This document shows positions 6,295 through 51,851 of a DNA stretch of 64,000 bases, piece by piece. The DNA lies in the IMG/VR virus record IMGVR_UViG_3300025859_000003; one strand, 5' to 3'. A program made the translations under genes and the position numbers. Within the stretch, counting starts at the first letter, position 1, and every line of letters starts with the position of its first letter. Below the pieces are notes generated by a model. It searched no databases. It was not told the origin of the DNA and was given only the letters and a program-made list of their open reading frames with translations. The DNA comes from a virus (taxonomy: Duplodnaviria > Heunggongvirae > Uroviricota > Caudoviricetes).

Positions 6295-6313
6295 GGCTAC
6301 AGAGTCTGCGACC
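6295..6313. repeat. degenerate copy of 21-bp palindrome (GGCTACAGAGTCTGCGACC)
   Basis: matches TGGCYGCAGAGTCTGCRGCCA family seen 10 more times. Confidence 0.6.
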
Positions 6314-6323
6314 ACAGCAGAAG

Positions 6324-6367
6324 GGCACCCTCGTCAGGAATCGAGGGTGCCCTAAGTCTGCTTTTTT
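6324..6367 (+). terminator. intrinsic terminator
   Basis: GGGCACCCTCG-loop-CGAGGGTGCCC hairpin followed by TGCTTTTTTA. Confidence 0.7.
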
Positions 6368-6414
6368 ACGGCCTAAGCAGATGTAGCCTTTTCTATTAGA
6401 AATGGAGGTTGTTC

Positions 6415-6876
6415 GTGTCTAACAAGAAAGAAGCCCCCGCCCCGGAGGGGGAACCGAAAGCCAAGCTTCCCCCCGATGTCGAGCAGTTCATCAACGACGA
6501 GATCAGCTATCTGCGGAAGATGGGCCTGGCCGGCGATCTTGAGGTCATGGCGGAGAGGGCGATGGAGCGCCTGAACCGCAAACATGAAGAGCTCAGGGAC
6601 CTCGAATCCGAGCTCGACATCGTTGAGTACGACATCAAGCAGAAGGACAAGGTCATTGACGAGTGGTGCAAGCCCCACCGCAAGATCCTGAGCCGGCTGC
6701 TGGTACTGGTCTTCAAGATCCGCAAGCCCTTCGACAAGTACTACGACGAGTTCGAAGAGCTGAAGAAAAAGAAGACCATCCTGGAGGCTCGTCGGGGAGC
6801 CCTTCTCGATGAGATTGATTCCGAAACCGATCTGGCCAAACGCGCAGCTGCGTGCCGCCGGGCAATGACCAGGTAG
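6415..6876 (+). CDS. coiled-coil protein
   Basis: Track ORF 6409..6876; GTG 6415 preceded by GGAGG; charged heptad-like sequence. Confidence 0.5.
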   Translation: MSNKKEAPAPEGEPKAKLPPDVEQFINDEISYLRKMGLAGDLEVMAERAMERLNRKHEELRDLESELDIVEYDIKQKDKVIDEWCKPHRKILSRLLVLVFKIRKPFDKYYDEFEELKKKKTILEARRGALLDEIDSETDLAKRAAACRRAMTR

Positions 6877-6886
6877 GAGAACAATC

Positions 6887-7702
6887 ATGGGTCGTTTGAC
6901 TGTCCACGTTCCTTTCAACGTGGGAGACCTTGTATTTGCTGCTGGTGTTGATGAACACCAGTACACCTGTGAGTGCGCGATGTGCAGCGGGTACGGCACC
7001 CTCAAAATACCGGAGGGCACGAAAGTCATAGGGGCCGAGGAAGAGGAAGGAGACTGGCTCGCAGACGACGAGGCAGAGTGCCCTGCTTGCGAAGGCTACG
7101 GCTCAGATGACGAGGAGGTTGAGATCCTGTTCCCGTGCCTGGTTGGCCGAATCTCGCGCATCACAGCTGACGTAACCGCGGATCTCGACGAAGAGAGTCC
7201 CGACGAGTACGAAGAGGTAATGGTAGGCATCCGTCACCTTGCCGTCGCTAACCTTGACGGAGAGTCCGAGATGTCGATGACCGAACAGATGATTCGGTTC
7301 TACCACGCACTCAAGGCCGGCGAGATCATGGACTTCAACACCGTGGTCAAAGGATCACCCACCACGGTGAGGGTGGACCGCATTCACAAGACCTACAAGC
7401 AGCTGTGTGAATACGTCTTGAAGGAGAACCTGGAAACCTTCAAGAAGATCCACGAGGATCTGACCAACCAGGAATACGAGATTCCGACCGTGGACCGGAT
7501 GGGCGCCATCCACGTCTGCAACGAAATCGTGGCCATCCAGGACATGATCCTGGGCATCTACCCGGAGCTCGCAAAGCTCACCCCCGGCTACAAGGCCAAA
7601 GGCAAGAAGACCAACAAGAAGACCGAAGGGAAGACGGAGAAGAAGCCGAACGAGGCCCTCATGGCTCTGTCTTCTGTAGAGGTCGAGGAGGCACTGTTTT
7701 GA
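6887..7702 (+). CDS. DnaJ-type CxxCxGxG zinc-finger protein, paralogue 1
   Basis: RBS AGGAGAACAATC; N-terminal CAMCSGYG ... CPACEGYG. Confidence 0.6.
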   Translation: MGRLTVHVPFNVGDLVFAAGVDEHQYTCECAMCSGYGTLKIPEGTKVIGAEEEEGDWLADDEAECPACEGYGSDDEEVEILFPCLVGRISRITADVTADLDEESPDEYEEVMVGIRHLAVANLDGESEMSMTEQMIRFYHALKAGEIMDFNTVVKGSPTTVRVDRIHKTYKQLCEYVLKENLETFKKIHEDLTNQEYEIPTVDRMGAIHVCNEIVAIQDMILGIYPELAKLTPGYKAKGKKTNKKTEGKTEKKPNEALMALSSVEVEEALF

Positions 7703-8280
7703 ACATCCAAGACGTCAAGCCAGGCGATCGGGTCTGGCTGATTCGAAAAGGCCTGTCAGTTGGGATCAAGCTGGTATGTCCTGATTGTCGTGGTGTAGGG
7801 TTCGCGGGAGACATCATGATCCCCTGCAACACCTGCGATGGCTATGAGTACATCCGCAAAGAGGTTCCCACCTTCGAGGTCGTTGGCGCTGTGAAGGTGC
7901 GCTCGGTGACGCACACCGGTGAACATGACGACCCGGTCGTCGAGATTCTGAGGCCGCCGCTCTTCCTGTTGGATGCCTACGGGAACAACGTGATCGAGAT
8001 GTGCAAGGATTACTGGGACGACTTCGAGAAGGGCAGGTCCCACGCAGGAGCCTACCCGCAGACAATCCGAGACCTCAGCCATCTGACGCTCACCTACGAA
8101 GAGGCCATCGAGCGTGCCAACGAGCTGACCAACTACCACATTCAGGACGCCTGTGACCAGGAGAAGACCGTACTCTATGACCGCCCGGAAGATGTATTCA
8201 GGCAGACGGCCGTTGGTCAGGCCCAGGCAGACACGGTTGAGATCTTCAAGGAAACAGCGATCGAAGAAGCCCTTTGTTAG
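7699..8280 (+). CDS. DnaJ-type CxxCxGxG zinc-finger protein, paralogue 2
   Basis: TTGA overlap start; GAGGAGG upstream; CPDCRGVG ... CNTCDGYE. Confidence 0.55.
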   Translation: MNIQDVKPGDRVWLIRKGLSVGIKLVCPDCRGVGFAGDIMIPCNTCDGYEYIRKEVPTFEVVGAVKVRSVTHTGEHDDPVVEILRPPLFLLDAYGNNVIEMCKDYWDDFEKGRSHAGAYPQTIRDLSHLTLTYEEAIERANELTNYHIQDACDQEKTVLYDRPEDVFRQTAVGQAQADTVEIFKETAIEEALC

Positions 8281-8290
8281 GAGAAAGGTG

Positions 8291-9031
8291 ATGTCAATAC
8301 GTGGAAGGCGGAGAAACTCCGACCATCAGAGATACACCTCGTACTTCATGAAGCAGCACGTTCACATGATCGCTCCTCGGACAAAGAGCGTGTCGATCGA
8401 CTGCAACACCTGTCACGGCACGGGCACGGATGGGTACTTCCAGCCGTGCTCCGAGTGTGACGGTGACGGCAAGAAGACCTACAACCTCACCCTGTACGAG
8501 TATGTCGGTGACGTGGAGATCGCCGGCTGCTCGGTCACCGCGGGAGGGAAGACCTACAGCGTTCGCTACTTCGATCTGTTCCACATTCCAGAGATGGTTC
8601 GAGCAGAGGAGTCGAAGCGGCGTTGGGATGCCATTGATGTAGGCCGCCGGCCTATGTCCGACGCCAACTGGTCCAGCAACATACCTGAGGACTGTCTGTT
8701 CTCATCCATCGGTCTCGCAATGGACGTCGCTTACGAGAACAACCTGGACATCCTCCAGGGTTTCACCAAGACGCAGGCGTTGGCCATACTCAAGTTGTTC
8801 GACGAGCATGAATCGTCAACCGCTACTCCATCGGTTGACTCTTCTGGCGCCTTGGTTCCGAAGGAGCTGCTGAGTGATCCTCCGGAGACGGTGGAGATGA
8901 CGCTGGGTGAATACCCGATGCTCACGTTTGAAACCTACTCACAGTCGATGCAAGGCAATGACCGCATCGTTACCGAGTCTGACTTCCGCAAGCGGCACGC
9001 TGACGTGAAGATCGAGACCGCTTTGACCTGA
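8291..9031 (+). CDS. DnaJ-type CxxCxGxG zinc-finger protein, paralogue 3
   Basis: Track ORF 8153..9031; ATG 8291 preceded by GGAGAAAGG and directly after previous stop; CNTCHGTG ... CSECDGDG. Confidence 0.55.
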   Translation: MSIRGRRRNSDHQRYTSYFMKQHVHMIAPRTKSVSIDCNTCHGTGTDGYFQPCSECDGDGKKTYNLTLYEYVGDVEIAGCSVTAGGKTYSVRYFDLFHIPEMVRAEESKRRWDAIDVGRRPMSDANWSSNIPEDCLFSSIGLAMDVAYENNLDILQGFTKTQALAILKLFDEHESSTATPSVDSSGALVPKELLSDPPETVEMTLGEYPMLTFETYSQSMQGNDRIVTESDFRKRHADVKIETALT

Positions 9032-9040
9032 GGAGAGAAC

Positions 9041-10117
9041 ATGGGATTCAAAATTGACAGCATGGTGTGCATCCATCTCCCTCGGTGGAAACAGATCGCA
9101 TTCTTCTGCGGTCAGTGTGCCGGTACCGGGTTCTCCGGTACAGGAACTTGTTTCAAGTGTAACGGCTCTGGTATTCGCACAGAGAGGTTGCAGTACCTGG
9201 TCTTTGGCGGCGTGGCCAAGATTACAGGCTTGTTCTCCATCCAGGGACAGACCACGTACACCATCGTCTATCCGTTCCTGCAGGGACTTCTCGACCACTC
9301 CAAGCAGGACACTCAGCAGATCATGGATGTATCGTCCGCGTTCTGGGAGAAGAATAAGGACTCTCAACAGAAGAGCCCGCCTGGAACGGTCACGATGCAG
9401 ATTCCGGAAAGTCAGGTGTTCCACACCTACAACGAGGCCATCCAGAACCTCACCAAGTGCAACAAAGAGGTAATCGACGAAGGCATCCGCCGGCACGGTG
9501 GCGTTCCCGGTATCTTTGAGGAGAACCCGGAGAAGATCAAGCCGAACACGACATCCCGAACCGGCGGTACGCCGTACAGCGGTAAGCCGTATGGAGAGCC
9601 GCGGGTCAATGACTTGTTGTGGGCAGTCGAGTACCACGGCAATGTCCAGAAGTTCTTCCGGTGTCCGCAGTGCAAAGGCGAGGCCAAGAAGGCCAACGTC
9701 AAGTGCTCCAGGTGCCACGACTCAGGGCACATTGCGATGCACATCCCGCAGTACATCCTGAGGGGGCAGGTACGTGTTATCGGAACTATGTCCGGTGACT
9801 ACCTCGACCTTGAGGCAGCTCCGATTCCCTACGTGGATGACGACACCCACGCCCTGATCACCAAGAACTACTGGGTCAATCACGCCGAGGGCACGGACAA
9901 CCGCATCCCCAAGAACACGATTGCCACCTGGGAACATCTGTTCTACACGGTGGACGGGGCCAAAGAGTGGCTCGCCAAGAAGAACGAGACCATGCTCAGG
10001 CAGTGGTGCGAGGATCACCACGACATCCTCCCTGTGGGGATGGACGGCGAGGTTCTTGAAGGGTTCAAGCCCAAGGTCGGCCCCAAGCCCGTACCCATCG
10101 AAGCCTGCCTCTGCTAG
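9041..10117 (+). CDS. DnaJ-type CxxCxGxG zinc-finger protein, paralogue 4 (largest)
   Basis: RBS AGGAGAGAAC; CGQCAGTG ... CFKCNGSG N-terminally and second pair CPQCKGEA ... CSRCHDSG mid-protein. Confidence 0.6.
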   Translation: MGFKIDSMVCIHLPRWKQIAFFCGQCAGTGFSGTGTCFKCNGSGIRTERLQYLVFGGVAKITGLFSIQGQTTYTIVYPFLQGLLDHSKQDTQQIMDVSSAFWEKNKDSQQKSPPGTVTMQIPESQVFHTYNEAIQNLTKCNKEVIDEGIRRHGGVPGIFEENPEKIKPNTTSRTGGTPYSGKPYGEPRVNDLLWAVEYHGNVQKFFRCPQCKGEAKKANVKCSRCHDSGHIAMHIPQYILRGQVRVIGTMSGDYLDLEAAPIPYVDDDTHALITKNYWVNHAEGTDNRIPKNTIATWEHLFYTVDGAKEWLAKKNETMLRQWCEDHHDILPVGMDGEVLEGFKPKVGPKPVPIEACLC

Positions 10118-10125
10118 GAGGGACA

Positions 10126-10431
10126 ATGTGTTACTACCCGCCGAGGTTCCTGGAAGGGACCAGGGTTCGCGTTATCAGGCACGGCAGCGATCCAAAGTAC
10201 GCCAGGGAAGGCGTCGTCGTACAGATGTTCGGCGGCGCCACCTGTGGCGTGTTTGACGTAATCTTTGACGGCGACGACTACCGCTCTACGTGTTCGGAGT
10301 GGGACCGTGTGGAGAGGATCTATGAAAACGAAGAGAGGAAAGCCCCTCCCGAAAAAGAAGTACCCGAAGAATCTGAAGTGGATCTACGAAGTTTGCTACA
10401 GGATGCGTGGAGACGTCGAGGCGGAGCATAA
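10126..10431 (+). CDS. hypothetical protein
   Basis: RBS AGGAGGGACA then ATG; overlaps next ORF by 110 nt in a different frame. Confidence 0.4.
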   Translation: MCYYPPRFLEGTRVRVIRHGSDPKYAREGVVVQMFGGATCGVFDVIFDGDDYRSTCSEWDRVERIYENEERKAPPEKEVPEESEVDLRSLLQDAWRRRGGA

Positions 10432-10588: not shown

Positions 10589-10609
10589 TGGCTGCAGAGT
10601 CTGCGGCCA
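10589..10609. repeat. 21-bp palindrome copy TGGCTGCAGAGTCTGCGGCCA
   Basis: inverted repeat, PstI-like CTGCAG arms around GAGTC core. Confidence 0.7.
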
Positions 10610-10612
10610 CGA

Positions 10613-10645
10613 GAGAAGGGTGGTCGCTCAACCCTTCTCTTTTAG
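10613..10645. terminator. bidirectional intrinsic terminator between convergent genes
   Basis: GAGAAGGGT-loop-ACCCTTCTC followed by TTTTAG; stop of minus gene at 10642. Confidence 0.65.
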
Positions 10646-11183: not shown

Positions 11184-11472
11184 TGGTACTACTCCTGTCC
11201 TGAAGCCACTGCTCTGTTTTGAGCTGAATAAGACGAAGCGCCCACATCGGATCCTTCCAGATGTCTTTGTACAACCACTGCCGCATCTTGGGAAAGTAGC
11301 GCTTGAGATCGTCACGAGCACCGTCGTATTGAGCCGCATACACCTTTGCATGATGAACGACGGTTTTCTGGTGAACCAAGGGTAGCCGTTCGAATCTCTT
11401 CTGTATGCGGTCCAGCCCCGAGGAGAACAGATCCAACGGAAATACCGACCTGAATTCTTCCCAGGGAGTCAT
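11176..11472 (-). CDS. hypothetical protein
   Basis: 98-aa ORF, 8-nt overlap with downstream gene. Confidence 0.45.
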   Translation of the reverse strand: MTPWEEFRSVFPLDLFSSGLDRIQKRFERLPLVHQKTVVHHAKVYAAQYDGARDDLKRYFPKMRQWLYKDIWKDPMWALRLIQLKTEQWLQDRSSTNV

Positions 11473-11954
11473 GCTGTGTTTCCTTTTCTGATGTCGGTTT
11501 TAGGGGCTCTACCAGGAATGAGCTTGAGGATAGGATCCCCGGTCTCGTCAAGGGGGACAGACCTGTTCTGCTTGCGCTGGCGTCCAAGCTTGATACCGGT
11601 CAGGTAGCGTTCGCTGAGCTCCGATCCCTTCATAAGGTGCTTGAGCTCGTCCATGGACTCAGGCTCAAACAGCAGGAAAAGGTTGGCCTTCTGGCCGGTG
11701 GACGCCCCGGTACGATTCACACGCCGAATCAGCCCCAGCTTCTCAAGTTCGGCAGACCATTCCCTCACCGTGCTCATACTTCGTCCGCACAGCTTTGCCA
11801 AGGTTCTCACAGAGGGGTGGCGATGCTCGCCTTTGAACCCGCCGTAGCTGGCGATCACCGTGTACAGGAACTTCCACTCCAAAGGTATAGGCAGGATGAT
11901 CAGCCACTTCGGCATCGTCGAGTAGGGCGTGGAGGGAAGATCTACTGATTGCAT
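11469..11954 (-). CDS. winged-helix/HTH DNA-binding protein
   Basis: Track ORF 11469..12002, likely start MQSVDL at 11954; HPSVRTLAKLCGRSMSTVREWSAELEKLGLIRR resembles HTH recognition segment; sits beside palindrome-rich non-coding hub. Confidence 0.5.
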   Translation of the reverse strand: MQSVDLPSTPYSTMPKWLIILPIPLEWKFLYTVIASYGGFKGEHRHPSVRTLAKLCGRSMSTVREWSAELEKLGLIRRVNRTGASTGQKANLFLLFEPESMDELKHLMKGSELSERYLTGIKLGRQRKQNRSVPLDETGDPILKLIPGRAPKTDIRKGNTA

Positions 11955-12002
11955 AAGAAAAGCTCCCGGAGCAGGCGTCGTTCTTTGGCGAAGAAGACAC
12001 AT

Positions 12003-12634
12003 ACACGGGAGCTTTAGCCGTTTGGGCCATACTCATAGTACGTGTCTTCTTCGCCGAGAACAACCCTACTCCGGCGAGAATTTTATGTCAAGAACGTATG
12101 GAGAAAAGCGTGCATCCCCCACCGGTGTATCGGCGGGGGACCCCCACCGGTGTACGCTACCCCTATAAGTAATACTAACTGCTAACCATCCCCCTACAGG
12201 GGATGGAAGTAACTGTACCAGTTACTTCCATCCCGCTCCCCCAGCGGCTGCGCCGCTGTGGTCGTCGGACGAGCTAAAAAGAAAAGGGTACTTTTACTTG
12301 ATCGCCTTAGCGGCGTAGGGTATACCACACCCGACGTACAGACCTCTGCCGATCTGTGCTTCATGTACTACCTTCCTTGTTTGAGTAAGACGGTCGAACT
12401 AACCTTCGGCCGTTTTGCTTTCAATGGGCCTACAACCCATCTGGCGTTCGATATGAGCAGCCTGAATGGCCGAAAGGTCTTCGGATACCCTAAGGTACCC
12501 GCCGAACGATCCTGGAGGCGTTTTATCGTAAAAAACAGGGGGTGGTTATGCTGGACCAAGGCCCACCCCCTGATTAGACGGTTTACCTGCGCCGCTCATT
12601 CGAGCCCACAGTCTCGGGCAGTCACGCAGGGCCG
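12003..12634. other. 630-bp non-coding regulatory hub
   Basis: No credible ORF; direct repeat CCCCCACCGGTGTA x2 (12116-12153); perfect 35-bp palindrome GGGATGGAAGTAACTG-TAC-CAGTTACTTCCATCCC (about 12202-12236) nested with CCATCCCC/GGGGATGG; 10-bp stem CAGGGGGTGG...CCACCCCCTG (about 12535-12570); possible sigma70-like TTGATC-17-TATACC near 12290-12320. Confidence 0.5.
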
Positions 12635-13057: not shown

Positions 13058-13087
13058 GTAAATCTCCTTTCTTTCCTACACCTTCTT

Positions 13088-13108
13088 AGGCCGTATGTGG
13101 CTGCAGAC
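13088..13108. repeat. 21-bp palindrome copy
   Basis: TGGCTGCAGACTCTGCAGCCA. Confidence 0.7.
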
Positions 13109-13115
13109 TCTGCAG

Positions 13116-13148
13116 CCACGGCGGGACTAAAAAGAAAGCCCCCCGGTT
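13116..13148 (-). terminator. intrinsic terminator
   Basis: GCCCCCC-loop-GGGGGGC with TTTCTTTTT on minus strand, just past stop of 13166..14068. Confidence 0.65.
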
Positions 13149-13165
13149 AGAGGGGGCTGTTCTTC

Positions 13166-14068: not shown

Positions 14069-14086
14069 TGAAAAGAGAAGGCCCTC

Positions 14087-16085: not shown

Positions 16086-16135
16086 GTCATTTCTCCTTTT
16101 CTGAGGAACCAAGTTTCCTCTCACTTTCTTAGGCC

Positions 16136-16163
16136 GTAAAAAAGAAGCCCCCTATGCGGGGGC
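16136..16163 (-). terminator. intrinsic terminator
   Basis: GCCCCC-GCATA-GGGGGC then TTCTTTTTT on minus strand. Confidence 0.6.
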
Positions 16164-16652
16164 CCCTTTCTGTGGCTGCAGAGTCTGCGGCCATCGTTCC
16201 GGTCTTATGGTAAGGCCCACGTTATTCAGCCAGGTTTTGACCGTGATGTTGGACCCATCATGGTCGACGACCGCGAGGCCGGGGCTCACGATGCCCAGCT
16301 CCACGGTGCGGAGAACCGCCTCCTGCAGGGACTTGCTCGGAGGTGAATAACACCAACCGGAGTCGTATCCACTTAGACCATTGGCCCACCGGTAATAGAC
16401 CTGAGACCTCCCCTCGCTGTCACAATACCAGAGGTCGCGACCCCCCTGCATGTACTCGCGGCATTGGTAGTGACCGAGAAACTTACAGCAGACGCACCCT
16501 TTGAAGTGTTCAAACCGAGGTTTTCCCAGGATCACCTTTGGAGTAACCCCCATTACTTCTGCAAAGAGTTCAATCTCCCGGAGGCGTGCCTCGTAAAGAC
16601 CGCCGGGAGTCATTAGCTTCAGCAGTTCTTCTCTGTCCATTCTTTCCCCCAT
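16152..16652 (-). CDS. Cys-rich hypothetical protein
   Basis: 166-aa ORF; C-terminus reads through palindrome copy 16173-16193. Confidence 0.45.
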   Translation of the reverse strand: MGERMDREELLKLMTPGGLYEARLREIELFAEVMGVTPKVILGKPRFEHFKGCVCCKFLGHYQCREYMQGGRDLWYCDSEGRSQVYYRWANGLSGYDSGWCYSPPSKSLQEAVLRTVELGIVSPGLAVVDHDGSNITVKTWLNNVGLTIRPERWPQTLQPQKGAPA

Positions 16653-18465: not shown

Positions 18466-18561
18466 CTCTTCTCCTTTTCAAAAGGGTTTCGGTACACCTT
18501 CTTAGGCCATCTCAACCAACAGCTCTTGATAAAGACTTTGGACCAAGACGAACTAAAAAAC

Positions 18562-18951
18562 ATGACCAAGCCTACGATTGTAAGGGTTCCCGGATTAGCC
18601 GAATCGGTGGACAAACTAGGTGAAGCTTCCGAGAACAAGGTAATTGAAGAGATAGTTCAGGTCCTGGAACGTCTTGGCTTTGGCCCTCCACCAGATGGAG
18701 GCCCCGGAGGGTTTTATGTGTTGATAGGACAGGGAGATCCCAGACGCTCTGGCTCCTCTTCTGGAACACCAGACATTCTTGTTTTGACTACTGAGCGATG
18801 TTTTCCTTTTGAGGTGAAACGTCGAGATAGGAAGGCCCAGATGTCGGAAGCGCAATACGCCATGTGGGAGCGTGGGTGTCTACATGTCGTGAACTGCGCT
18901 GATCAGGTCCGGTCAGTGATACTAGGGGAATTGACAAAAACTATCAGATGA
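18562..18951 (+). CDS. VRR-NUC domain nuclease (PD-(D/E)xK)
   Basis: Track ORF 18454..18951, ATG 18562; GTPDILVLTTERCFPFEVKRRDRKAQMSEAQYAMWERGCLHVV fits VRR-NUC pattern G.PD...f.E.K...g.ls..Q..w...G; lone plus-strand gene inside minus block. Confidence 0.6.
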   Translation: MTKPTIVRVPGLAESVDKLGEASENKVIEEIVQVLERLGFGPPPDGGPGGFYVLIGQGDPRRSGSSSGTPDILVLTTERCFPFEVKRRDRKAQMSEAQYAMWERGCLHVVNCADQVRSVILGELTKTIR

Positions 18952-18952
18952 G

Positions 18953-18974
18953 GTAAGCCTCTACCGAGGCTTAC
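18953..18974 (+). other. perfect 9-bp stem hairpin after VRR-NUC stop
   Basis: GTAAGCCTC-TACC-GAGGCTTAC; no T-tract. Confidence 0.4.
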
Positions 18975-19116
18975 GTCACACCTAAAATCCAAAGTTTTAG
19001 TGAACGACAGCGAAGTTCAGGGCTTCTAAGGGAGCTCCGGCCAAAACTCTCGTTTGCACGGTGGTCACTGGATCGGACAGATTCTGTGCTGGTAAAAAGA
19101 AAAGCCCCGAAAGGGG

Positions 19117-24819: not shown

Positions 24820-24894
24820 GACGTTCTCCTTTGGGGTATTGAATTTCTCCTATCCTCTTAGACCGTAAAAAAGGAGCCCCTAAGGAGCTCCTTG

Positions 24895-24915
24895 TGGCTG
24901 CAGAGTCTGCCGCCA
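24895..24915. repeat. 21-bp palindrome copy
   Basis: TGGCTGCAGAGTCTGCCGCCA. Confidence 0.65.
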
Positions 24916-26653: not shown

Positions 26654-26682
26654 TCTGAGTTCCTTTCGACTGAAAAAGAAAA

Positions 26683-26703
26683 TGGCTGCAGAGTCTGCAG
26701 CCA
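26683..26703. repeat. 21-bp palindrome copy
   Basis: TGGCTGCAGAGTCTGCAGCCA (perfect). Confidence 0.7.
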
Positions 26704-26911
26704 TTTGAGTGATGACGGCGGGGACTTCAGCAGTGAGCGCAGTCCCCGGTTCTACCACCGCGCTGTCCCTGTACCGATCCACGCACCGCGGTTCCTTCAA
26801 GCCATGGAGCACAGCTTTTGGCCGTGCCCTGTAGTCCAAACGGCGTCAATGCCTCCTACGGCCTCGGTACACCGGCCTCACACTTACTCCCGCCCTATTG
26901 GGTCACCGCCA

Positions 26912-29847: not shown

Positions 29848-29979
29848 CTACTCCTTGATTATGGTGAACTTCTTGCGTTTCTTGATAAGGTGCCAGGCCG
29901 CCCGGCTGTTATCCACGACCCGCTTGCGTTCAGCTTCGAACTCATCGTGGTAGTTCCTGACCGCCTGCTTTACAGACAT
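29848..29979 (-). CDS. small basic protein (43 aa)
   Basis: Track ORF to 30087; AAGGAGGACGTTC ATG at 29979. Confidence 0.35.
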   Translation of the reverse strand: MSVKQAVRNYHDEFEAERKRVVDNSRAAWHLIKKRKKFTIIKE

Positions 29980-30040
29980 GAACGTCCTCCTTGAACGATC
30001 CGATGAAGTACTTCTTCCGCCTACTCTCTTAGGCCCTATA

Positions 30041-30061
30041 TGGCCGCAGACTCTGCAGCCA
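30041..30061. repeat. 21-bp palindrome copy in divergent intergenic region
   Basis: TGGCCGCAGACTCTGCAGCCA. Confidence 0.7.
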
Positions 30062-30085
30062 CGGCTGGCTATACTGACTGATGTC

Positions 30086-37530: not shown

Positions 37531-37599
37531 GGTTATTCCTTTTGAACTAAGAGAAAAGGCCCGAAGGCCTAAATTCTCTCCATCTGCTTAGACCACACA

Positions 37600-37620
37600 T
37601 GGCTGCAGAGTCTGCAACCA
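37600..37620. repeat. 21-bp palindrome copy
   Basis: TGGCTGCAGAGTCTGCAACCA. Confidence 0.65.
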
Positions 37621-37624: not shown

Positions 37625-39010
37625 CTAAGCCGCGATGTTCTTGTCCTCCCATTTCTTGTTGAGAGCCGTGCGGATGCAGATCTCCTGGAAACTGGCCGGC
37701 GTGATGTCTTCGTAGGACCTGGCCATCTCCTCGATCTTTTCCGCGGAGATCATGTCCCCACAGATCATCTGAGCCATCTGCAGTCTCCCCTCGTACGGCA
37801 GCTCGCCGAGTTCAACGACGCGGTCGACACGTCCTGGCCGAGAGCCGATCTCCTCGGTGGACCCTCCGCCCAGCGCAGGATCGAGGAGCTCAACGTTGTT
37901 GGTGGTTATGAACAGCAGAGTACCGTCGGTACGGTCTACGCCATCAATCAGGTTCAGTAGACAATCGAACGTTACGCCCTGCACGTTTTGCGGGGTAGCG
38001 ATGTTCTTGCGACCGTGGAAGATACCGTCGATGTCCTCGATCAGGATGATCCTCTTACCGTACAGCTGGCAGCGGATGCGCCAGGCATTGGACAGGTACT
38101 GGTTGTCCATCGAGGCCAGGTCGAAGACGTAGATCGGAAGATCGAACTTCTGTCCGATGGCCCGAACGAAGCTGGATTTACCAGTCCCAGGTCTACCGTA
38201 AAATACGTAGCCGCGATGCCACGGGATGTTGCGATCACGGTACCAATCCTGGTTATCGATCCAGAACTCAATCTCCCTCACCACTCGTTCCTGGTTGGCG
38301 TCAAGAATCAGCGACCGGAACGCCTCAGCACCCTCGTTCTGACCGACGTCATCCCACTTGAAGTCGATCGGCAACTGAGCCTTCATGTCGAAGCCAACAC
38401 CGCCGGAAGCCTTGGTATGACTGCTCGGAGACGCCACCATATTTTCAGGGATCGGCCCGGAGTTATGGTCGGTCATCATTCTCAGGCTGCCGACAACGTA
38501 ATCGACGAAGAAGTTGGAGTCCTTGTCAAACTGTGTATCTTCTTCGAGGTCGCGGTTCAGGACCTTTAGCCCTTCTTCGACGAAATGATGGAACGGAAAC
38601 GTCCAACGGATAAACCGAATCATGGTGTGACTGTGTTGGTTCACTCCTTCTTTTGGCTCCGTCCTCGACGGCTGAAACCATACAGGACGCCACCCGATCC
38701 AAAACAACGTGGACTGCTCACTGAGACTTTCGTAGGCCACATACCGCCACTTCCGTTTGGAGCGTAGCCAGGCGAGGAATGAGCTGTACGCCCTGATACC
38801 AAACTTGCGGCGCCGGCCGTTTCGACCCAAGTAGGTCTGGATGCCGGTGCTCAGCTTGTAGTCTGAAACCTGCTGCGGAACGATGATGAAAGACAGGGCC
38901 TTGATCATCATCTGCCTGGTCTTCCCCCAGATAGATGCGAGGTAACCCAGAACCAAAAGGCCGGTAGCGCCAATGGCGGCCTCAAGGCCGCCTATCTGCG
39001 GAAATTCCAT
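37625..39010 (-). CDS. BCS1-like membrane-anchored AAA+ ATPase
   Basis: N-terminal TM (GATGLLVLGYLASIWG); IPWHRGYVFYGRPGTGKSSFVRAIGQKFDLPIYVFDL (Walker A), ILIEDIDGIF (Walker B); RGYL.YGPPGTGKSSF context typical of BCS1 family. Confidence 0.7.
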   Translation of the reverse strand: MEFPQIGGLEAAIGATGLLVLGYLASIWGKTRQMMIKALSFIIVPQQVSDYKLSTGIQTYLGRNGRRRKFGIRAYSSFLAWLRSKRKWRYVAYESLSEQSTLFWIGWRPVWFQPSRTEPKEGVNQHSHTMIRFIRWTFPFHHFVEEGLKVLNRDLEEDTQFDKDSNFFVDYVVGSLRMMTDHNSGPIPENMVASPSSHTKASGGVGFDMKAQLPIDFKWDDVGQNEGAEAFRSLILDANQERVVREIEFWIDNQDWYRDRNIPWHRGYVFYGRPGTGKSSFVRAIGQKFDLPIYVFDLASMDNQYLSNAWRIRCQLYGKRIILIEDIDGIFHGRKNIATPQNVQGVTFDCLLNLIDGVDRTDGTLLFITTNNVELLDPALGGGSTEEIGSRPGRVDRVVELGELPYEGRLQMAQMICGDMISAEKIEEMARSYEDITPASFQEICIRTALNKKWEDKNIAA

Positions 39011-39305: not shown

Positions 39306-40004
39306 TTACTTGACCTTGATGAGATTGACCTTCGCGTTCACGGACGCGTGTCCCTCACGTTGAGTGTTTTGCTCCGCTGGCGGCTCCATTGATTCTGCGA
39401 TCAACAGGGCTCCGCGGAGAAGCTCTTTCAGGCGTTGCCTGTTTTCGGGCATCTTGTCGATGTCTCCGATCGTCTTTCCGATGTCTGCCAGGCCTTCGGA
39501 GAGGATGGTCTCGATGGCCATGAACTTGCCCTCCATCCGTGCCGCGCTGCGGTGGGCATCGATCTCAAGAACGTTGTCCAGCGGATTCTTCCTGCCGGAA
39601 TGCTTGCGAGGGAACTTTTCGGACTTGGCCTTCCCCTTCTCTTTGATCTTCTTGGGGTAGACCTTTCCACTCATGGTCCTTTTGACGTAACTCTCGGATC
39701 CACCGGTGGCCTTCACTACTTCCCTTGCCGTAGCGTTCGGGTGCTCTTTGGTGTAGGCCTGGATCTTTCTCTTCATCGCACCACGCTTGGTGACTTGCCG
39801 GGATCGGACTCGGGCGTAGGATTTCGATAGAAGGTGGGCGAACGTCTTCCTCGTGGCCCACACGTACGCATCAGACGAGCCGACGGACTCGGCCACCTGC
39901 CTTGCCGACCAATCAGGGTACTGGTTCTGCTTCGCGACGATTTTCTCTGCGACAGACCCAGTCTCGGGCAAGGCCACTTCAGTTTCTTGCATCGTTTCTG
40001 GCAT
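39306..40004 (-). CDS. basic protein with two HTH-like segments
   Basis: WSARQVAESVGSSDAYVWATRK and ATAREVVKATGGSESYVKRTM; Lys/Arg-rich. Confidence 0.45.
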   Translation of the reverse strand: MPETMQETEVALPETGSVAEKIVAKQNQYPDWSARQVAESVGSSDAYVWATRKTFAHLLSKSYARVRSRQVTKRGAMKRKIQAYTKEHPNATAREVVKATGGSESYVKRTMSGKVYPKKIKEKGKAKSEKFPRKHSGRKNPLDNVLEIDAHRSAARMEGKFMAIETILSEGLADIGKTIGDIDKMPENRQRLKELLRGALLIAESMEPPAEQNTQREGHASVNAKVNLIKVK

Positions 40005-43436: not shown

Positions 43437-43489
43437 GACATGACTCCTCTAGTTTCACTAAAGTGTCATGGCACACCTCCTTTCGTTTA

Positions 43490-44038: not shown

Positions 44039-44093
44039 GGCGGCTCCTAAAATTTTTCCGCCTAATGCGGATCATCGTCTTAGGCCCTAAAAA

Positions 44094-44118
44094 GAAAGGG
44101 CTCTGGGAGCCCTTTCTG
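44094..44118 (-). terminator. intrinsic terminator
   Basis: GGGCTCCCAGAGCCC + TTTCTTTTT on minus strand. Confidence 0.6.
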
Positions 44119-44139
44119 TGGCTGCAGACTCTGCGGCCA
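44119..44139. repeat. 21-bp palindrome copy
   Basis: TGGCTGCAGACTCTGCGGCCA. Confidence 0.7.
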
Positions 44140-46015: not shown

Positions 46016-46034
46016 AACAATCTCCTTGCCGTGG

Positions 46035-46790: not shown

Positions 46791-46837
46791 GACGTAAACC
46801 CTTTCTTACTACCTTAGGCCAGCTAAGCTAAAAGAAA

Positions 46838-46858
46838 TGGCCGCAGAGTCTGCAGCCA
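46838..46858. repeat. 21-bp palindrome copy
   Basis: TGGCCGCAGAGTCTGCAGCCA. Confidence 0.7.
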
Positions 46859-46865
46859 TCTCCTT

Positions 46866-47315
46866 CTATCCAACCTTTCGGTAGGTCTTCCTTCTGGCGG
46901 CACCGTAGACCGTAAAGTAGCTCAAGTTGAGCCGGCGGGCGATGATGCTTATCGGGAACTCTTGATCAGCCATACGTCGGATCTCGGTAACGACCAGGTC
47001 CGGAAGGCGATCACCGGTTTGAAGCCGACTAACTGCTGCCCGCACCTCGTCAGGTATGGGTTCAACCTGAGCTCTCTTCCAGGCCTTCCTCACCCGACGA
47101 AGACGGTTGTGCTCTTTGTCTACCTTATCCCAATCAGGACAAATGAAATGTCCGGGAGTGTCGTCGTTCACCCAAGCCCAGCATTTTCTGTGGGCAATCC
47201 TCCAGGCATGAACCAACGATATGCCGTAGTCCAAAGCAATAGTCAGGGAAGACTCCGACCCAAACCGTTTACGGATGTCCCGAACGCCGTCGGCGTTCAG
47301 TGGCTTAGTCGTCAT
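46866..47315 (-). CDS. protein with N- and C-terminal HTH-like segments
   Basis: LTIALDYGISLVHAWRIAHRK and ISIIARRLNLSYFTVYGAARRK. Confidence 0.45.
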   Translation of the reverse strand: MTTKPLNADGVRDIRKRFGSESSLTIALDYGISLVHAWRIAHRKCWAWVNDDTPGHFICPDWDKVDKEHNRLRRVRKAWKRAQVEPIPDEVRAAVSRLQTGDRLPDLVVTEIRRMADQEFPISIIARRLNLSYFTVYGAARRKTYRKVG

Positions 47316-47324
47316 TGCTCCTCT

Positions 47325-47920: not shown

Positions 47921-48342
47921 GATGTGGATGCCTTCTTCTTCTTGAGCTTGGCCGCTTCCTTGTCGATGAAAGCGTAGGGAACGCACCACTTCTGACTCTT
48001 CGCGGTGATGAATACCCCGCCTCCGCTGAACTCATCGAGACGCATCTTCGAGCAGGTATTTGACCAGGTAAAACTGATGTACTCATCGGGGCGGTGCTCT
48101 TTCAGGAAGGCCTGAAGAAGGCAAGCCAGGTTATCGACCATGAAGCCTTCCTCGGCATAGATCCACAGATCCTCATAGCCTTCCTTCTGTTCGAACTCGT
48201 AACTGACCCCGATGTATTCGTCGAAGTTGTCCTCTTCGTCCGCCTTACGTTGACCCTCTTCGAAGGCATCCTTCAGCCAGGCGGACTCGACCGGGTTCAG
48301 CTTCGTCAACATGAAACTGGTCTGGGTGTAGTTATTCGCCAT
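47917..48342 (-). CDS. hypothetical acidic protein
   Basis: 141 aa. Confidence 0.5.
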   Translation of the reverse strand: MANNYTQTSFMLTKLNPVESAWLKDAFEEGQRKADEEDNFDEYIGVSYEFEQKEGYEDLWIYAEEGFMVDNLACLLQAFLKEHRPDEYISFTWSNTCSKMRLDEFSGGGVFITAKSQKWCVPYAFIDKEAAKLKKKKASTS

Positions 48343-49015
48343 CCTCGACCTCCGTTGACACGGTCAGCACCACCGGAGGATTCGTCGGTTGATATTCCTC
48401 GGTGCAGGTTGAGACGTTGTAGAAGGACGTCACCTCATCTTTAGGTTTGGCAACACCGTAGCTGCCGTGGATGTGGCCAAACACGTGAATCAGAGGCTTC
48501 ACCCGTTGAACTGCTTTCAGCAGCTCTTCGCAGCCAGCTGTTGTTCCTGGGTTGTCAGGATGGGGTTCCACCTTGTCGAGGATACCGATCGGCGGCCCGT
48601 GGGTGATCAGCACATCTGTATCGTCGGGGATCAGATCCCAATGCTTCTTGATCCCCAGCCCCCTCGGACGCATGAAGTACCAGTTCAGGAACTTGGGAGT
48701 CCAAGGCGAGCCCCAGAACTTCACGCCCTCGATCTCGACTCCTGTGTCTTCGAGGTACGTGATTTCCGGGTACTTCTTGAGTTCGGCATGGCACAGGTCC
48801 ATGTCGAACACCAAACAGCGATCATGATTGCCAGCGATGAGCAGCTTGTGCTTGTGAGGCTGGGAGCCAAACCACTTCAGGAAGTTACGGAACTCCCAGA
48901 AATGACCGTGGCCGCAGCTGTCGCCGCAATGGATCAGGACGTCCCCGTTGGGGACGGAAATCTGCTTCTCTCGGGTGTGCGTGTCAGAGATCAGCACCAA
49001 GGTTAGATTGCCCAT
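48332..49015 (-). CDS. calcineurin-like metallophosphoesterase
   Basis: VLISDTH, HCGD, GNHD, THGPP, GHIHG motif series. Confidence 0.75.
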   Translation of the reverse strand: MGNLTLVLISDTHTREKQISVPNGDVLIHCGDSCGHGHFWEFRNFLKWFGSQPHKHKLLIAGNHDRCLVFDMDLCHAELKKYPEITYLEDTGVEIEGVKFWGSPWTPKFLNWYFMRPRGLGIKKHWDLIPDDTDVLITHGPPIGILDKVEPHPDNPGTTAGCEELLKAVQRVKPLIHVFGHIHGSYGVAKPKDEVTSFYNVSTCTEEYQPTNPPVVLTVSTEVEDGE

Positions 49016-49413
49016 CCCTCACCCTTCTCCAGGGTTTCCTGGATCTTGCCCAGGAGCTCCATGAGCGTGTCCGCCGAGTTGGCTGCGTCGGCAACCTCGT
49101 GGTCCTTGATGACGCTGCGGCGGCCGAACCAGGTGAGGGCCACCTCAAAACGATCGGCCTCGGTTTCCAGCTGCTTCTTGTGGATCTTGGTGAGCTTGTC
49201 TGTCCAGATGGTCTTCCACTCAAGGTTCTGGTCAGCAAGCGCATTCTGCAGGCGCTTGATGACGGCCTTGAAGGTGTCTCGAAGTTCAAGCTTGGCCTTG
49301 GCCTTCAAGAACGGACAGCTGTACTGTCCAAGCTTTGCCAGGAAGAACTCAAGGCCGGCGAGGTAGTCGACCAGGGTCTTGCGTATGTTTCCAGGTACCT
49401 TTCCTTGTTTCAT
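49003..49413 (-). CDS. hypothetical protein
   Basis: 136 aa. Confidence 0.5.
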   Translation of the reverse strand: MKQGKVPGNIRKTLVDYLAGLEFFLAKLGQYSCPFLKAKAKLELRDTFKAVIKRLQNALADQNLEWKTIWTDKLTKIHKKQLETEADRFEVALTWFGRRSVIKDHEVADAANSADTLMELLGKIQETLEKGEGWAI

Positions 49414-49436
49414 CTTCGTAGTCCTAATTGAAAAGG

Positions 49437-49476
49437 CCGGCCCCCGAAGGAGCCGGCCAGCTTTTGAAAGTCCTCA
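49437..49476. terminator. intrinsic terminator (GGCCGGC-loop-GCCGGCC) with flanking A/T tracts
   Basis: stem-loop immediately past stop of 49485..gene on minus strand. Confidence 0.55.
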
Positions 49477-49484
49477 GGTTCTGC

Positions 49485-49868
49485 CTACCCGAGGTACGAA
49501 CTGTTGCTGAGCTTGGTGGCCTCGTAGCCGCTCTTCCAGTCCCAGTCGTCGAGAACGATCTGGGTGAAGACCTCCTGGGAGAGCTCGATCTGGGTGTCGG
49601 ACGTCAACGACAGCATCTCGATGATGCGGTCGTAGTGACGGGTCTGGTCGACCGGACGGCTCAGGTTCTTCAGCACGTGAGCGTGGTTGACATCCTTGCC
49701 GCTGTCGAGCATGTCGAGCACCTGACGACAGGCCGCGGCCGTCGCCTGGCGGTACTCCTTCATGGCGACCTTGAAATCCGCGGCGTGCTTGTCGCGGTTT
49801 GATTTCAGCTTTTCGAGGAGCTGGTCTTTCGGGTACTTCATGTCAGGTATTCCACGCATCTGTAACAT
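49485..49868 (-). CDS. hypothetical protein
   Basis: Track ORF to 50021; ATG 49868 preceded by GAAGGAGAAAGG. Confidence 0.45.
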   Translation of the reverse strand: MLQMRGIPDMKYPKDQLLEKLKSNRDKHAADFKVAMKEYRQATAAACRQVLDMLDSGKDVNHAHVLKNLSRPVDQTRHYDRIIEMLSLTSDTQIELSQEVFTQIVLDDWDWKSGYEATKLSNSSYLG

Positions 49869-49884
49869 CCTTTCTCCTTCGTCG

Positions 49885-50100
49885 TTAGATGAATTCTTTG
49901 GACGGATCGATCCCCAGCTCCTCAAGACGCTTGAGGAGCCTCTCAGCGGACAACCCGGTAAACATGCTCGAATCCTCGCTGATGACGGAGTATATGTCCA
50001 GGTCCCCGTTCTTGTGGACATCCAGGAACCATCCTAGTGCGTGGTCTTTGCCCCACAGCACGTGCCGCCCATCAGCGAGCTTCTCATGATGCTGGCTCAT
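49885..50100 (-). CDS. small hypothetical protein
   Basis: Track ORF to 50142; start MSQHHEK. Confidence 0.4.
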   Translation of the reverse strand: MSQHHEKLADGRHVLWGKDHALGWFLDVHKNGDLDIYSVISEDSSMFTGLSAERLLKRLEELGIDPSKEFI

Positions 50101-50102
50101 CA

Positions 50103-50603
50103 CTACTCCTCCGGTTCGGGTAAGCCAACACTGGCGTCCCACCGATTCGTGTGCTTCAGAAACTTGACAGCCAGAGCGTACATGGCTGCAGCCTGCGGTC
50201 CCTGGAACGGAGTGCTCATCGGCAGCCCATGTACGGAGTTACGGTGCTTCAACGCACACACCGGACATGACGCGTACGTCCCTTCTGTAGACACCGACTG
50301 GGCGATTAGTGCCAACGGGAAGTCGATCTTACAGATCTTACACTTTTCCAGGTCCTCTGGAGCAAGCGTGTCGAACTGTTCTTCCAGCCCCGGAAAGTTG
50401 TGTTCAAAATACAGGTAGGTCCCGTCTTCTTGTTGAATGCGGACCTTGCCCAGGTATTCCAGTTCTTCGTCAGCCTCCGAATCGAAAGGAATCCCTATCT
50501 CGGAGAGCTCATGAAGCGGGATCCAGATGAACACATCCTCGTGGCCCTTGGGAGCCGCGTACATCAGCTCGATGTTCTTGGCCTTCGTATATTTTTCAGC
50601 CAC
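50103..50603 (-). CDS. hypothetical protein
   Basis: 166 aa. Confidence 0.5.
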   Translation of the reverse strand: MAEKYTKAKNIELMYAAPKGHEDVFIWIPLHELSEIGIPFDSEADEELEYLGKVRIQQEDGTYLYFEHNFPGLEEQFDTLAPEDLEKCKICKIDFPLALIAQSVSTEGTYASCPVCALKHRNSVHGLPMSTPFQGPQAAAMYALAVKFLKHTNRWDASVGLPEPEE

Positions 50604-50619
50604 TCACCCCCCTTTCATG

Positions 50620-50656
50620 TAAATAAAGAAGAGGGGCTTTCGCCCCCGCTTCTTCT
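50620..50656 (-). terminator. intrinsic terminator
   Basis: AGAAGCGGGGGCGAAAGCCCCTCTTCT + TTATTTA on minus strand. Confidence 0.55.
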
Positions 50657-50672
50657 CGGCAACGCAGGACCT

Positions 50673-51140
50673 TTAGGTGGTCTGGGGTGTAGACCGGGCC
50701 CTGCTCTGGTATTCCCCAGCGCCTGTCCCCTCTTTCGGAAGGACGTTCATGGTGACCTCCTTCTGCTTAGGCGCCAGCAGCCTCTCTGCGAGGCCGCTAA
50801 TGAGTGTGTTGAACCGAACAACCTTGAACTTCTCCCTGATCGCCAACTTGATCAGGTAGACGGCGTCCGCCGCCAGGTCTTTGTCCCGTTCGAGGTTCTC
50901 GTACAGGACCATGGCGTCCGCCGACTTGAGAATCGGTGGAAGAACCTCTTCAACGAACAGTTCCAGGAACTCTGGATCTGATCGGTTGCAATCGTGAAGC
51001 CACTTCAGCCAGCAGCTGAAGTTTTCGAAGTCCTCGTCGTCGAGGACTCCTGATTCCTTGACGATCCTGAGGACCGTCATCGCGCCAACGGATAACCCCT
51101 TATCCGTTAACGACTTACCAGTGCCGAGTATACCTTGCAT
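50673..51140 (-). CDS. hypothetical protein
   Basis: 155 aa. Confidence 0.5.
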   Translation of the reverse strand: MQGILGTGKSLTDKGLSVGAMTVLRIVKESGVLDDEDFENFSCWLKWLHDCNRSDPEFLELFVEEVLPPILKSADAMVLYENLERDKDLAADAVYLIKLAIREKFKVVRFNTLISGLAERLLAPKQKEVTMNVLPKEGTGAGEYQSRARSTPQTT

Positions 51141-51188
51141 TGCTTCACCCCTTTCCGGTGAAAGGCCTATAGATTCCCTTTCACCTCC

Positions 51189-51803
51189 TTAGGCCGGATC
51201 GATCGGGGTTTTTGGGTCACCGCCTCCCATCAGTTGCAGGTTACCGTGAATTTTCATCCAGACGGGAAAGCGCATCTCCCAAAGTTTGAGGGCGAAGACT
51301 TCCCTGGCGCGGTACCGGTCAGACATCTTGTCGGTCAGCCGCGACGACCTCCAAGGCGGACAGATCCGTTTCTTTTCTGACAGCTTCGGTTCAGCCCTGG
51401 AGTTCCTGACCGCCCATGCCAAGGCGTTCTCGGTGCCTCGGATCATGTGAAGCAGGTTGGCCATTTTGGCTACTACCCAGTACAGATGAATCGCCTTCTC
51501 GATGCTTTCGCGGAGTTCACCCTGTATGGGTATCCCGCCGTTCAGGATACTCTGGAGTACCGTCTTACGGTGAACCACCTTGGCGGAGAGCTTGGCGAGG
51601 CCAACCGCACAGCGTGCACGATCTGAGGCGGAACAGCCGTGGTCTCCGATGGCCAACAAAAGGCTAAGTCCCTGCGCCTCGGCAAAGCCGGCGCGGCGGT
51701 ACTCAACCTCAGGAGCGATATTCATCACCGGCAACGAGATGTTGACGTGGTCCAGGAAATCGTCGAACGGGATCCATGGTTTATCTACGGTCATCGCTGA
51801 CAT
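51189..51803 (-). CDS. hypothetical protein
   Basis: Track ORF to 52022; ATG 51803 preceded by AGAAAGGA; first gene of minus block at divergent junction. Confidence 0.5.
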   Translation of the reverse strand: MSAMTVDKPWIPFDDFLDHVNISLPVMNIAPEVEYRRAGFAEAQGLSLLLAIGDHGCSASDRARCAVGLAKLSAKVVHRKTVLQSILNGGIPIQGELRESIEKAIHLYWVVAKMANLLHMIRGTENALAWAVRNSRAEPKLSEKKRICPPWRSSRLTDKMSDRYRAREVFALKLWEMRFPVWMKIHGNLQLMGGGDPKTPIDPA

Positions 51804-51830
51804 CGTGTCCTTTCTGGTTGTGGTCGCAGA

Positions 51831-51851
51831 CTCTGCGGCCATACTGTTTAC
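51831..51851. repeat. 21-bp palindrome copy (degenerate) in divergent junction
   Basis: TGGTCGCAGACTCTGCGGCCA. Confidence 0.6.

Follow-up and report, generated by a model that had tools for sequence, protein, structure and literature searches.

Two described phage systems come close to the element reported here. Stoperators of Cluster A mycobacteriophages (sites of the L5 gp71-type immunity repressor) are present as tens of copies of a short site, mostly in short intergenic regions, and the version of the motif varies by genome (PMC6550527, PMC9283540). These sites are asymmetric, bound by a monomer, and mostly found in one orientation relative to transcription (PMC9283540, PMC6550527). The PeSL (promoter-early stem-loop) and PmSL elements of T4-type phages are terminator-promoter cassettes connected with insertion and replacement of ORFan genes (Arbiol et al. 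2010, Comeau et al. 2014; PMC2839356, PMC4122927). Here we analyze a palindromic repeat in 64,000 nt of a Caudoviricetes virus (IMG/VR record IMGVR_UViG_3300025859_000003; this whole stretch is referred to as the window). The repeat, which we name PAL, is a 10-S-10 dyad, TGGYYGCAGA-S-TCTGCRRCCA. It is real, strongly non-random, and phage-specific, and its sequence is under purifying selection. Judging from sequence comparison, we consider it most likely, with about even confidence, that PAL is the docking site of a putative dimeric phage-encoded DNA-binding protein that controls transcription at unit boundaries.

A search of the window for TGGCYGCAGAGTCTGCRGCCA with up to three mismatches returned 11 copies, against 0.01 expected from 100 dinucleotide shuffles (Table 1). 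The 11-copy repeat reported in a first-pass annotation of this DNA is thereby borne out, apart from two coordinates that were 10 off (13088, correctly 13098, and 51831, correctly 51821). Two further copies are located in the 5.9 kb past the right end of the window, giving 13 in ~71 kb total; copies are spaced by ~5 kb on average and stand at gene boundaries. On either side of one central base, the arms TGGCTGCAGA and TCTGCAGCCA are each other's exact reverse complement, and the dyad extends to 23 bp through R…Y flanks, with R-TGGYYGCAGA as the half-site. All 20 matches to TGGYYGCAGA in the window are inside the 11 dyads and none is solitary. The element had been described as having an asymmetric core and occurring in both orientations. 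We found a perfect 10-N1-10 palindrome instead, in which only the central base, G or C, breaks the symmetry; the choice between these two bases is all that the 'two orientations' amount to.

Gene calls were transferred from identical public contigs, which gives the window a coding fraction of 0.90. Eight of the 11 copies are wholly outside called coding sequences (CDSs), and the probability of placing at least that many in 10% non-coding DNA is ~1e–6 (our own binomial estimate). The other three touch the extreme ends of calls with variable starts or stops: contigs disagree on these calls, and PAL falls within their final 14 codons or within an alternative 5' extension. Copies are not distributed at random with respect to genes: there is a clear intergenic excess in the window, and the sole copy seen inside a CDS belongs to another phage. 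The first-pass annotation was also right that PAL produces spurious gene starts. Calls at PAL sites differ as 602 versus 644, 204/217 versus 277, and 215 versus 223 amino acids (aa), and the spurious N-termini translated from PAL read ATGGCTGCAG…, which is a practical warning about start-codon calls. As to neighboring genes, the HNH endonuclease gene 5904–6293 and a gene for an SNase-domain protein on another contig (L019 19674–20045) both end directly at a PAL copy.

PAL is typically part of a larger cassette. A recurring order along the direction of transcription is stop codon, 0–7 nt, PAL, 2–5 nt, terminator with T-run, GGYCTAAG-N6, Shine-Dalgarno (SD) sequence, and start codon. Variants of this order are terminator, PAL, N5, motif (at 13098); PAL, N5, motif (at 30041 and 37600); PAL serving as the terminator stem itself (at 26683 and 46838); and a convergent junction without a promoter (at 10589). 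The proposed adjacency to terminators was confirmed by folding and by a terminator scan, in which terminator-like hairpins are enriched in the window, and the proposed adjacency to a conserved motif by the presence of GGYCTAAG within 66 nt of 8 out of 11 copies. In its longer form the promoter-like motif reads (a/t)cGGYCTAAG-rrGrTG and is found 20–60 nt upstream of start codons, often right after a terminator T-run; the 16-mer ACGGCCTAAGAAGGTG occurs 9 times in the window versus 0.57 expected. The succession of terminator, T-run, GGYCTAAG, SD, and ATG is seen at 6370, 13085, 16128, 17375, 22513, 24857, 33785, and 44079. Sites resembling sigma70 promoters are depleted in the window (3 versus 8.8 and 3 versus 6.7 expected), and the conserved motif GGCCTAAGAAGGTG is found instead. 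GGYCTAAG may be a promoter for a phage sigma factor or for a modified RNA polymerase.

Table 1. Copies of PAL and associated features in the window, with arrangement of the neighboring elements and orthologous copies in related contigs
Feature	Position	Strand	Arrangement	Orthologous copies
PAL copy 1, TGGCTACAGAGTCTGCGACCA, most degenerate	6294–6314		directly 3' of TGA of HNH endonuclease gene 5904–6293; terminator and motif next	L016
Terminator hairpin and T-run (6320–6367), then GGCCTAAG promoter-like motif (6370–6377)	6320–6377	+		
PAL copy 2	10589–10609		directly 3' of TGA; terminator 10611–10643 next; convergent junction without promoter motif	L016
PAL copy 3	13098–13118		minus-strand order: terminator 13129–13160, PAL, 5 nt, GGCCTAAG 13085–13092	L016, 21/21 identical
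PAL copy 4	16173–16193		minus-strand order: PAL, terminator 16138–16170, motif 16128–16135	
PAL copy 5	24895–24915		TAA stop 1 nt before; on minus strand, terminator 24867–24893, motif 24857–24864	
PAL copy 6, perfect	26683–26703		on minus strand, stem of terminator-like hairpin with U-run (26673–26706)	
PAL copy 7, divergent region	30041–30061		minus side PAL-N5-GGCCTAAG 30028–30035; plus side PAL-N8-TATACT 30070–30075, ATG 30086	
PAL copy 8	37600–37620		4 nt past stop of AAA-ATPase gene 37625–39010; N5-GGTCTAAG 37587–37594; small hairpin 37549–37570	L040, L041 (center base flipped in L041)
PAL copy 9	44119–44139		directly 3' of TAG; terminator 44089–44116, motif 44079–44086	
PAL copy 10	46838–46858		7 nt past stop; hairpin runs into U-run 46830–46866; motif 46813–46820	L040, L041, L045
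PAL copy 11	51821–51841		divergent, upstream of structural-gene block; 10 nt to ATG of ORF 51852–52172; ~17–25 nt to minus-strand start	L041, L045
8-mer motif starts	6370, 13085, 16128, 17375, 17818, 18501, 22513, 24857, 30028, 33785, 37587, 44079, 46813, 51188			

To follow PAL beyond the window, we refer to the window phage as A, to its relative L016 as A', and to L040 as A'', and call the form of the dyad found in the window PAL-1 where a variant family, PAL-2, has to be told apart. Diverged relatives of the A clade (L016, L041/L042, L040, and L045) show 67–90% nucleotide identity over aligned segments or 45–80% protein identity. PAL-1 is kept in these relatives at junctions orthologous to 6294, 10589, 13098, 30041, 37600, 46838, and 51821. 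At six orthologous junctions of A and A', PAL itself is 89.7% identical (113/126) versus 67.4% (364/540) in the 45-nt flanks, and the terminator stems beside it diverge by paired, compensatory substitutions. The center base flips between orthologues (37600 versus L041 10820). The sense strand reads TGACTGCAG… (position 3 is A, giving TGA) in four A' copies (L016 1456, 9751, and 14131; L041 10820), all sharing one orientation, and in both of those checked against gene calls the TGA in PAL positions 1–3 is the stop codon of the upstream open reading frame (ORF).

Some junctions differ between relatives in the presence of PAL. In L040 and L045, the junction corresponding to 44119 has the stop, the terminator, and the motif, PAL is missing, and the upstream gene is a different one. 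The 16173 copy is likewise missing at the orthologous L016 junction, and a copy in L016 is found ~440 nt away after different genes. Comparison of these junctions shows PAL to be separable from the other cassette elements. In L040, the counterpart of 46838 is a conserved island made of PAL and the motif, with the segments on both sides replaced. Comparing junctions with and without PAL revealed no target-site duplication, and we rejected a transposon-like insertion on this ground.

We scanned GTDB, metagenome records, deposited phages and plasmids, and IMG/VR with the exact degenerate 21-mer. Only 3 single matches were found in 185,579 species' genomes of GTDB, where ~1 is expected by chance (our estimate). 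The one intergenic match among them (L009, a Planctomycetota metagenome-assembled genome) is a lone copy in an ordinary chromosomal context, 155 nt past a gene for an SNase-domain protein. A total of 241 M metagenome records contained 8 single matches and no multi-copy family, and deposited phages and plasmids gave partial single matches only. In IMG/VR, one 76-kb contig with 5 exact copies and 2 short relatives of that contig were found. The idea that PAL mimics a CRISPR (clustered regularly interspaced short palindromic repeats) repeat was dropped, there being no array-like multi-copy match in any scanned genome.

The 76-kb type, phage B, has the same 21-mer as A. Over the ~60 kb of B compared, neither DNA nor BLAST-level protein comparison revealed similarity to the window, and no protein common to A and B was found in these parts. 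Its genes include sigma70-like, RecA-like, and intein-containing ones. One could suppose that B contigs are another part of the window's genome. However, homologues of the 1170-aa protein of B are not on the window's contigs, hence B is a separate phage. B', a 194-kb contig with proteins 58% identical to those of B, has no PAL-1. It carries TGGYTGCRTC-S-GAYGCARCCA (PAL-2) in at least six places, two of which are orthologous to PAL-1 copies of B. One of these two is intercistronic, and the other falls in the reading frame of a conserved intein-containing CDS (L034 1363–1383, L033 1266–1286), where it encodes 'MAADSAAM' in B and 'LAASDATN' in B'. Between PAL-1 and PAL-2, the outer arms are unchanged, positions 9–10 and 12–13 are switched symmetrically (GA/TC to TC/GA), and the R/Y flank is switched to T/A. 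The typical context in B and B' is a gap of 35–40 nt without promoter or terminator, in which PAL starts 0–2 nt past the stop and ends 1–8 nt before the SD and the start codon. The GGYCTAAG motif is kept in the A-clade relatives and in B' and was not seen in B. At position 831 of the B' contig L037, GGCCTAAG-N5-dyad-N8-TATACT stands between divergent genes as at window position 30041, with the variant dyad in place of PAL-1; the same divergent layout is found in A'' (L040 19807) and is thus kept in three lineages. The gene to the right of the B' site is homologous to window 52791–53753 (E = 8e–13), one shared structural protein. Since A and B' share the promoter-like motif and a structural-protein homologue, they are distant relatives. 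The type of PAL does not follow phylogeny: A and B have the same one, and B differs from B'. The PAL-1/PAL-2 pair represents a natural specificity-switch experiment, in which the architecture is the same and two bases per half-site are changed symmetrically and genome-wide.

As the putative target of a sequence-specific dimer encoded by this phage lineage, PAL has R-TGGYYGCAGA as its half-site, with the central G:C pair on the dyad axis. PAL is a separable module within terminator-promoter-SD cassettes at transcription-unit and cistron boundaries. Beside the promoter-like motif the PAL center would be at about –31/–32, assuming that the TAAGAA or TATACT hexamer is the –10 element, and a protein bound there would either occlude this promoter or activate it. 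Where PAL follows a stop codon and precedes a terminator or SD, the protein would act as an orientation-independent roadblock or insulator.

That the target is duplex DNA rather than RNA we infer from the pattern of substitutions and the placement. Complementarity between positions 10 and 12 holds throughout both families (A/T in one, C/G in the other), though no loop of 1 nt can form. At position 0, all 40 half-sites have a purine, and the two flanks are under no constraint to pair. The center is G:C 10:10 in the folded matrix, never A or T; on the sense strand it is G in 8 and C in 7 of the sense-defined independent copies, without bias relative to transcription. Such a G/C center, unbiased and flipping between orthologues, fits a G:C pair on a dyad axis and not a recognized RNA loop base. 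Sequence-specific reading of a perfect RNA stem with a variable sole unpaired base would be unusual. Sense-strand asymmetries in the sense-defined copies amount to 9 G·U pairs versus 15 true mismatches, the opposite of what is expected under selection for an RNA stem. We also count in favor of DNA that PAL is found upstream of promoter-like motifs in the divergent geometry kept across three lineages. The first-pass annotation had proposed a stoperator-like operator for a dimeric regulator: the dimeric operator is favored by the comparative evidence, whereas the comparison with stoperators fails in the strict sense, since those are asymmetric and orientation-biased (PMC6550527).

Several observations weigh against a protein-bound operator. 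We found no binder, and the helix-turn-helix (HTH) candidate that was examined does not co-vary with the site. Most copies are 0–7 nt past a stop, and those in B and B' are 1–8 nt before an SD, so they are transcribed and equally apt for an RNA element; moreover, two copies (26683 and 46838) are terminator stems. The distance from the PAL center to the motif is fixed (16 nt) in 3 of the 8 window copies that have the motif nearby, and in the rest it is 28–66 nt and out of helical phase. We found no helical phasing of PAL and the motif outside the 16-nt class and abandoned this idea. The promoter roles of GGCCTAAG and TATACT are themselves predictions. Finally, T4-like phages are virulent, which makes a classical immunity-repressor role unlikely.

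All three proteins proposed earlier as candidate binders (39306–40004, 46866–47315, and 11469–11954) failed to gain support. The 232-aa protein encoded by 39306–40004 combines a tandem pair of HTH-like modules with a basic linker and a conserved C-terminal domain, and three shorter relatives have a single HTH-like module. The module is duplicated, lost, or replaced among relatives, and proteins with one module or a non-homologous N-terminus are encoded beside flanking DNA that is ~90% identical, which points to domain-level mosaicism. We rejected this protein because the putative recognition helices differ among genomes that all use PAL-1. The product of 11469–12002 was set aside as an HTH_36, replication-initiator-like protein. 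ORF 46866–47315, which ends 7 nt ahead of a PAL copy, was set aside as well, having weak HNH-type PHROG matches only. No protein resembling ParB/KorB or the phiC31 repressor turned up in the window.

PAL could instead act as RNA, a hairpin with a 9-bp stem and 3-nt loop that would be an mRNA stabilizer, a processing site, an auxiliary terminator, or a translational operator near the SD. We regard this as unlikely, though it accounts well for the position of PAL just past stops in A, B, and B' and shortly before the SD in B and B'. In folding, PAL also forms a hairpin of its own, just 5' of canonical terminators. A U-run is present directly 3' of the PAL hairpin at 26683 and 46838 only, where PAL is a terminator-like stem; other copies have no U-run, and a separate terminator is next. 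The four A' copies that carry TGA, two of them confirmed as providing the upstream stop, fit a transcribed element too. However, the excess of true mismatches over G·U pairs on the sense strand is difficult to reconcile with a selected RNA stem, and what is kept in PAL is the sequence and not merely pairing, whereas the adjacent terminators drift by compensatory change. The change from PAL-1 to PAL-2 is symmetric in both arms, though sense-strand substitutions show no pairing-preserving bias. The unpaired nucleotides would include a center that is randomly G or C, complementarity at positions 10/12 and the R/Y flanks are not explicable by pairing, and some copies are upstream of promoter-like motifs in divergent regions. 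A search of Rfam matched no family, and typical RNase III substrates have longer stems. The RNA hairpin had been offered as an alternative by the first-pass annotation; it is weakened but keeps some probability, since two copies do form terminator stems. An N4-type hairpin promoter or a nicking site (GAGTC) was rejected because either needs an orientation, and the center is unbiased and flips between orthologues. A resemblance to sigma54 promoters (TGGC…TGCA) was also discounted: the spacing is off by one in our reading, and the PAL site is symmetric.

Returning to a dimeric DNA-binding protein, its most far-reaching form would be a group of large, uncultivated, lytic T4-like phages with ~30–40 identical dyad operators, all read by one dimeric protein, the specificity of which was switched symmetrically from PAL-1 to PAL-2 at every site, even the intragenic one. 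This would be an analogue of a stoperator network, but symmetric and orientation-free, and it might double as a recombination site for cassette shuffling. We hold this extended version to be rather unlikely.

We also find it quite improbable that PAL is in the first place a recombination or mobility module, that is, the joint of PeSL-like mobile cassettes or the target of a site-specific nuclease or recombinase, with modular gene shuffling as the main effect and uniformity arising from horizontal spread and concerted evolution. At the conserved stop-terminator-motif junctions corresponding to 16173 and 44119, presence or absence of PAL goes together with replacement of the upstream gene, and at 46838 in L040 PAL and the motif persist between replaced segments. 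The departure of PAL type from phylogeny, and the nuclease genes that end at PAL (HNH and SNase) or 7 nt before it (46866–47315), point in the same direction. T4-type PeSLs act in this way, and a stem-loop-binding recombination protein was speculated on by the authors who described them (PMC2839356, PMC4122927). In contrast, the two strain-level indels of the window have short direct repeats, not PAL, at their ends, and the junctions show no target-site duplications. Most copies are retained at orthologous positions across 67–78% nucleotide divergence. Furthermore, the copy inside the intein-containing CDS was converted in situ to the variant without flanking homology, which homologous gene conversion explains poorly.

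Finally, it is very improbable that PAL is a host-derived repetitive extragenic palindromic (REP) element or a restriction or methylation site, although its extragenic post-stop position resembles that of REPs and it contains GAGTC/GACTC (GANTC; CcrM, HinfI) and two CTGCAG (PstI) sites. The GTDB matches are about as many as expected by chance, the Planctomycetota match is a lone copy, and with no multi-copy family in the sampled genomes PAL is not a host REP in any of them, though the host may lie outside the sampling. GAGTC, GACTC, GAATC, GATTC, and CTGCAG occur at about the Markov expectation in the window, PAL copies apart, and both GANTC and CTGCAG are missing from the sister family PAL-2; the resemblance to these sites, pointed out in the first-pass annotation, is thus incidental, as they are neither enriched nor avoided.

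We looked for the place of the window phage among known lineages. Megablast and tblastn against deposited phages found no close relatives of the window, and most large window proteins have no PHROG or Pfam match. Identical proteins are found on contigs of 64–195 kb from several metagenomes, the longest carrier being 195,499 bp, and contig tiling gives a genome of at least 167 kb by our own arithmetic. A 167-kb contig encodes a homologue of the window protein 52791–53753, with Gp23, Peptidase_S77, gp13, and T4-baseplate matches among the surrounding genes. L044 (ENA ERZ25073254 ctg88376, 166,769 bp) is a distant relative with 42% GC and the T4-type genes Gp23, gp13, and baseplate; its S77 protease is fused in a 1851-aa ORF. 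The 21 kb of L044 examined showed no 10-N-10 dyad family. Linkage to Gp23, S77, gp13, and baseplate genes, and linkage only, suggests that the lineage is distantly related to T4-like myoviruses. Neither a repressor nor an integrase was identified in the window annotation, no lysogeny genes were seen, and no relatives of the putative capsid-region protein were found in IMG/VR. For this otherwise unannotatable lineage, PAL is a cheap sequence marker in metagenomes.

The window has several other features of its own. A 418-bp segment at 4327–4744 is present here and missing from other contigs of the same phage, and a 550-bp segment at 29888/29899 is missing here and present in other contigs; both have short direct repeats at their bounds, and several assemblies break near 29,895. 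A gene-free gap of 630 nt (12003–12634) is located beside the HTH_36 replication-initiator-like gene 11469–12002. A perfect 16-3-16 inverted repeat (12200–12234) and two occurrences of CCCCCACCGGTGTA spaced by 25 nt make this gap a candidate origin of replication. The 650 nt at 18466–19116, downstream of GGCCTAAG at 18501, have no called genes, no tRNA, and no Rfam match, and may contain a small-RNA gene or small ORFs. CTAG is strongly under-represented in the window (26 versus 91 expected), and CCCGGG is rare (2 versus 11.7).

Compared with stoperators, PAL is similar in being multi-copy, dispersed, and mainly intergenic, with a version that differs among related genomes, and a roadblock has been proposed for both. 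However, PAL is a perfect dyad of 21–23 bp without orientation bias, and stoperator-bearing phages are temperate, whereas the PAL lineage looks T4-like, with no lysogeny genes seen. With PeSLs, PAL shares a repeated setting of stem-loop terminator, promoter, SD, and start codon between small ORFans, which is rare in structural modules. Gene replacements abut PAL cassettes at 16173, 44119, and 46838; the two strain-level indels lie elsewhere. In contrast to PeSLs, which have sigma70-like promoters, the PAL cassettes have the GGCCTAAGAAGGTG motif in a sigma70-depleted window. PeSL stem-loops are loosely conserved (GGGG…CCCC or A3–4G3…C3T3–4) and PAL is near-invariant. PAL is moreover an extra, separable dyad, found also without promoter or terminator and once inside a CDS.

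Like REPs and RAYT-associated palindromes, PAL is a short extragenic palindrome just past stops and is often transcribed. REPs, however, are chromosomal, imperfect, present in hundreds of copies, and have a conserved GTAG-type head, whereas none of the scanned species' genomes has PAL in multiple copies. The 'conserved inverted repeats' of the phiC31 repressor and the OB sites of KorB (IncP) are 13–17 bp dyads present in ~12–18 copies and bound by a dimeric regulator, some at promoters and others remote. They are functional analogies only, as the sequences, replicons, and binders differ from those of PAL. Known control in T4-like phages relies on MotA/AsiA, on gp55/gp33, and on PeSL cassettes, which are loosely conserved. 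Should a single protein indeed recognize all PAL sites, T4-like phages would have a type of global regulator or insulator that has not been described in them so far.

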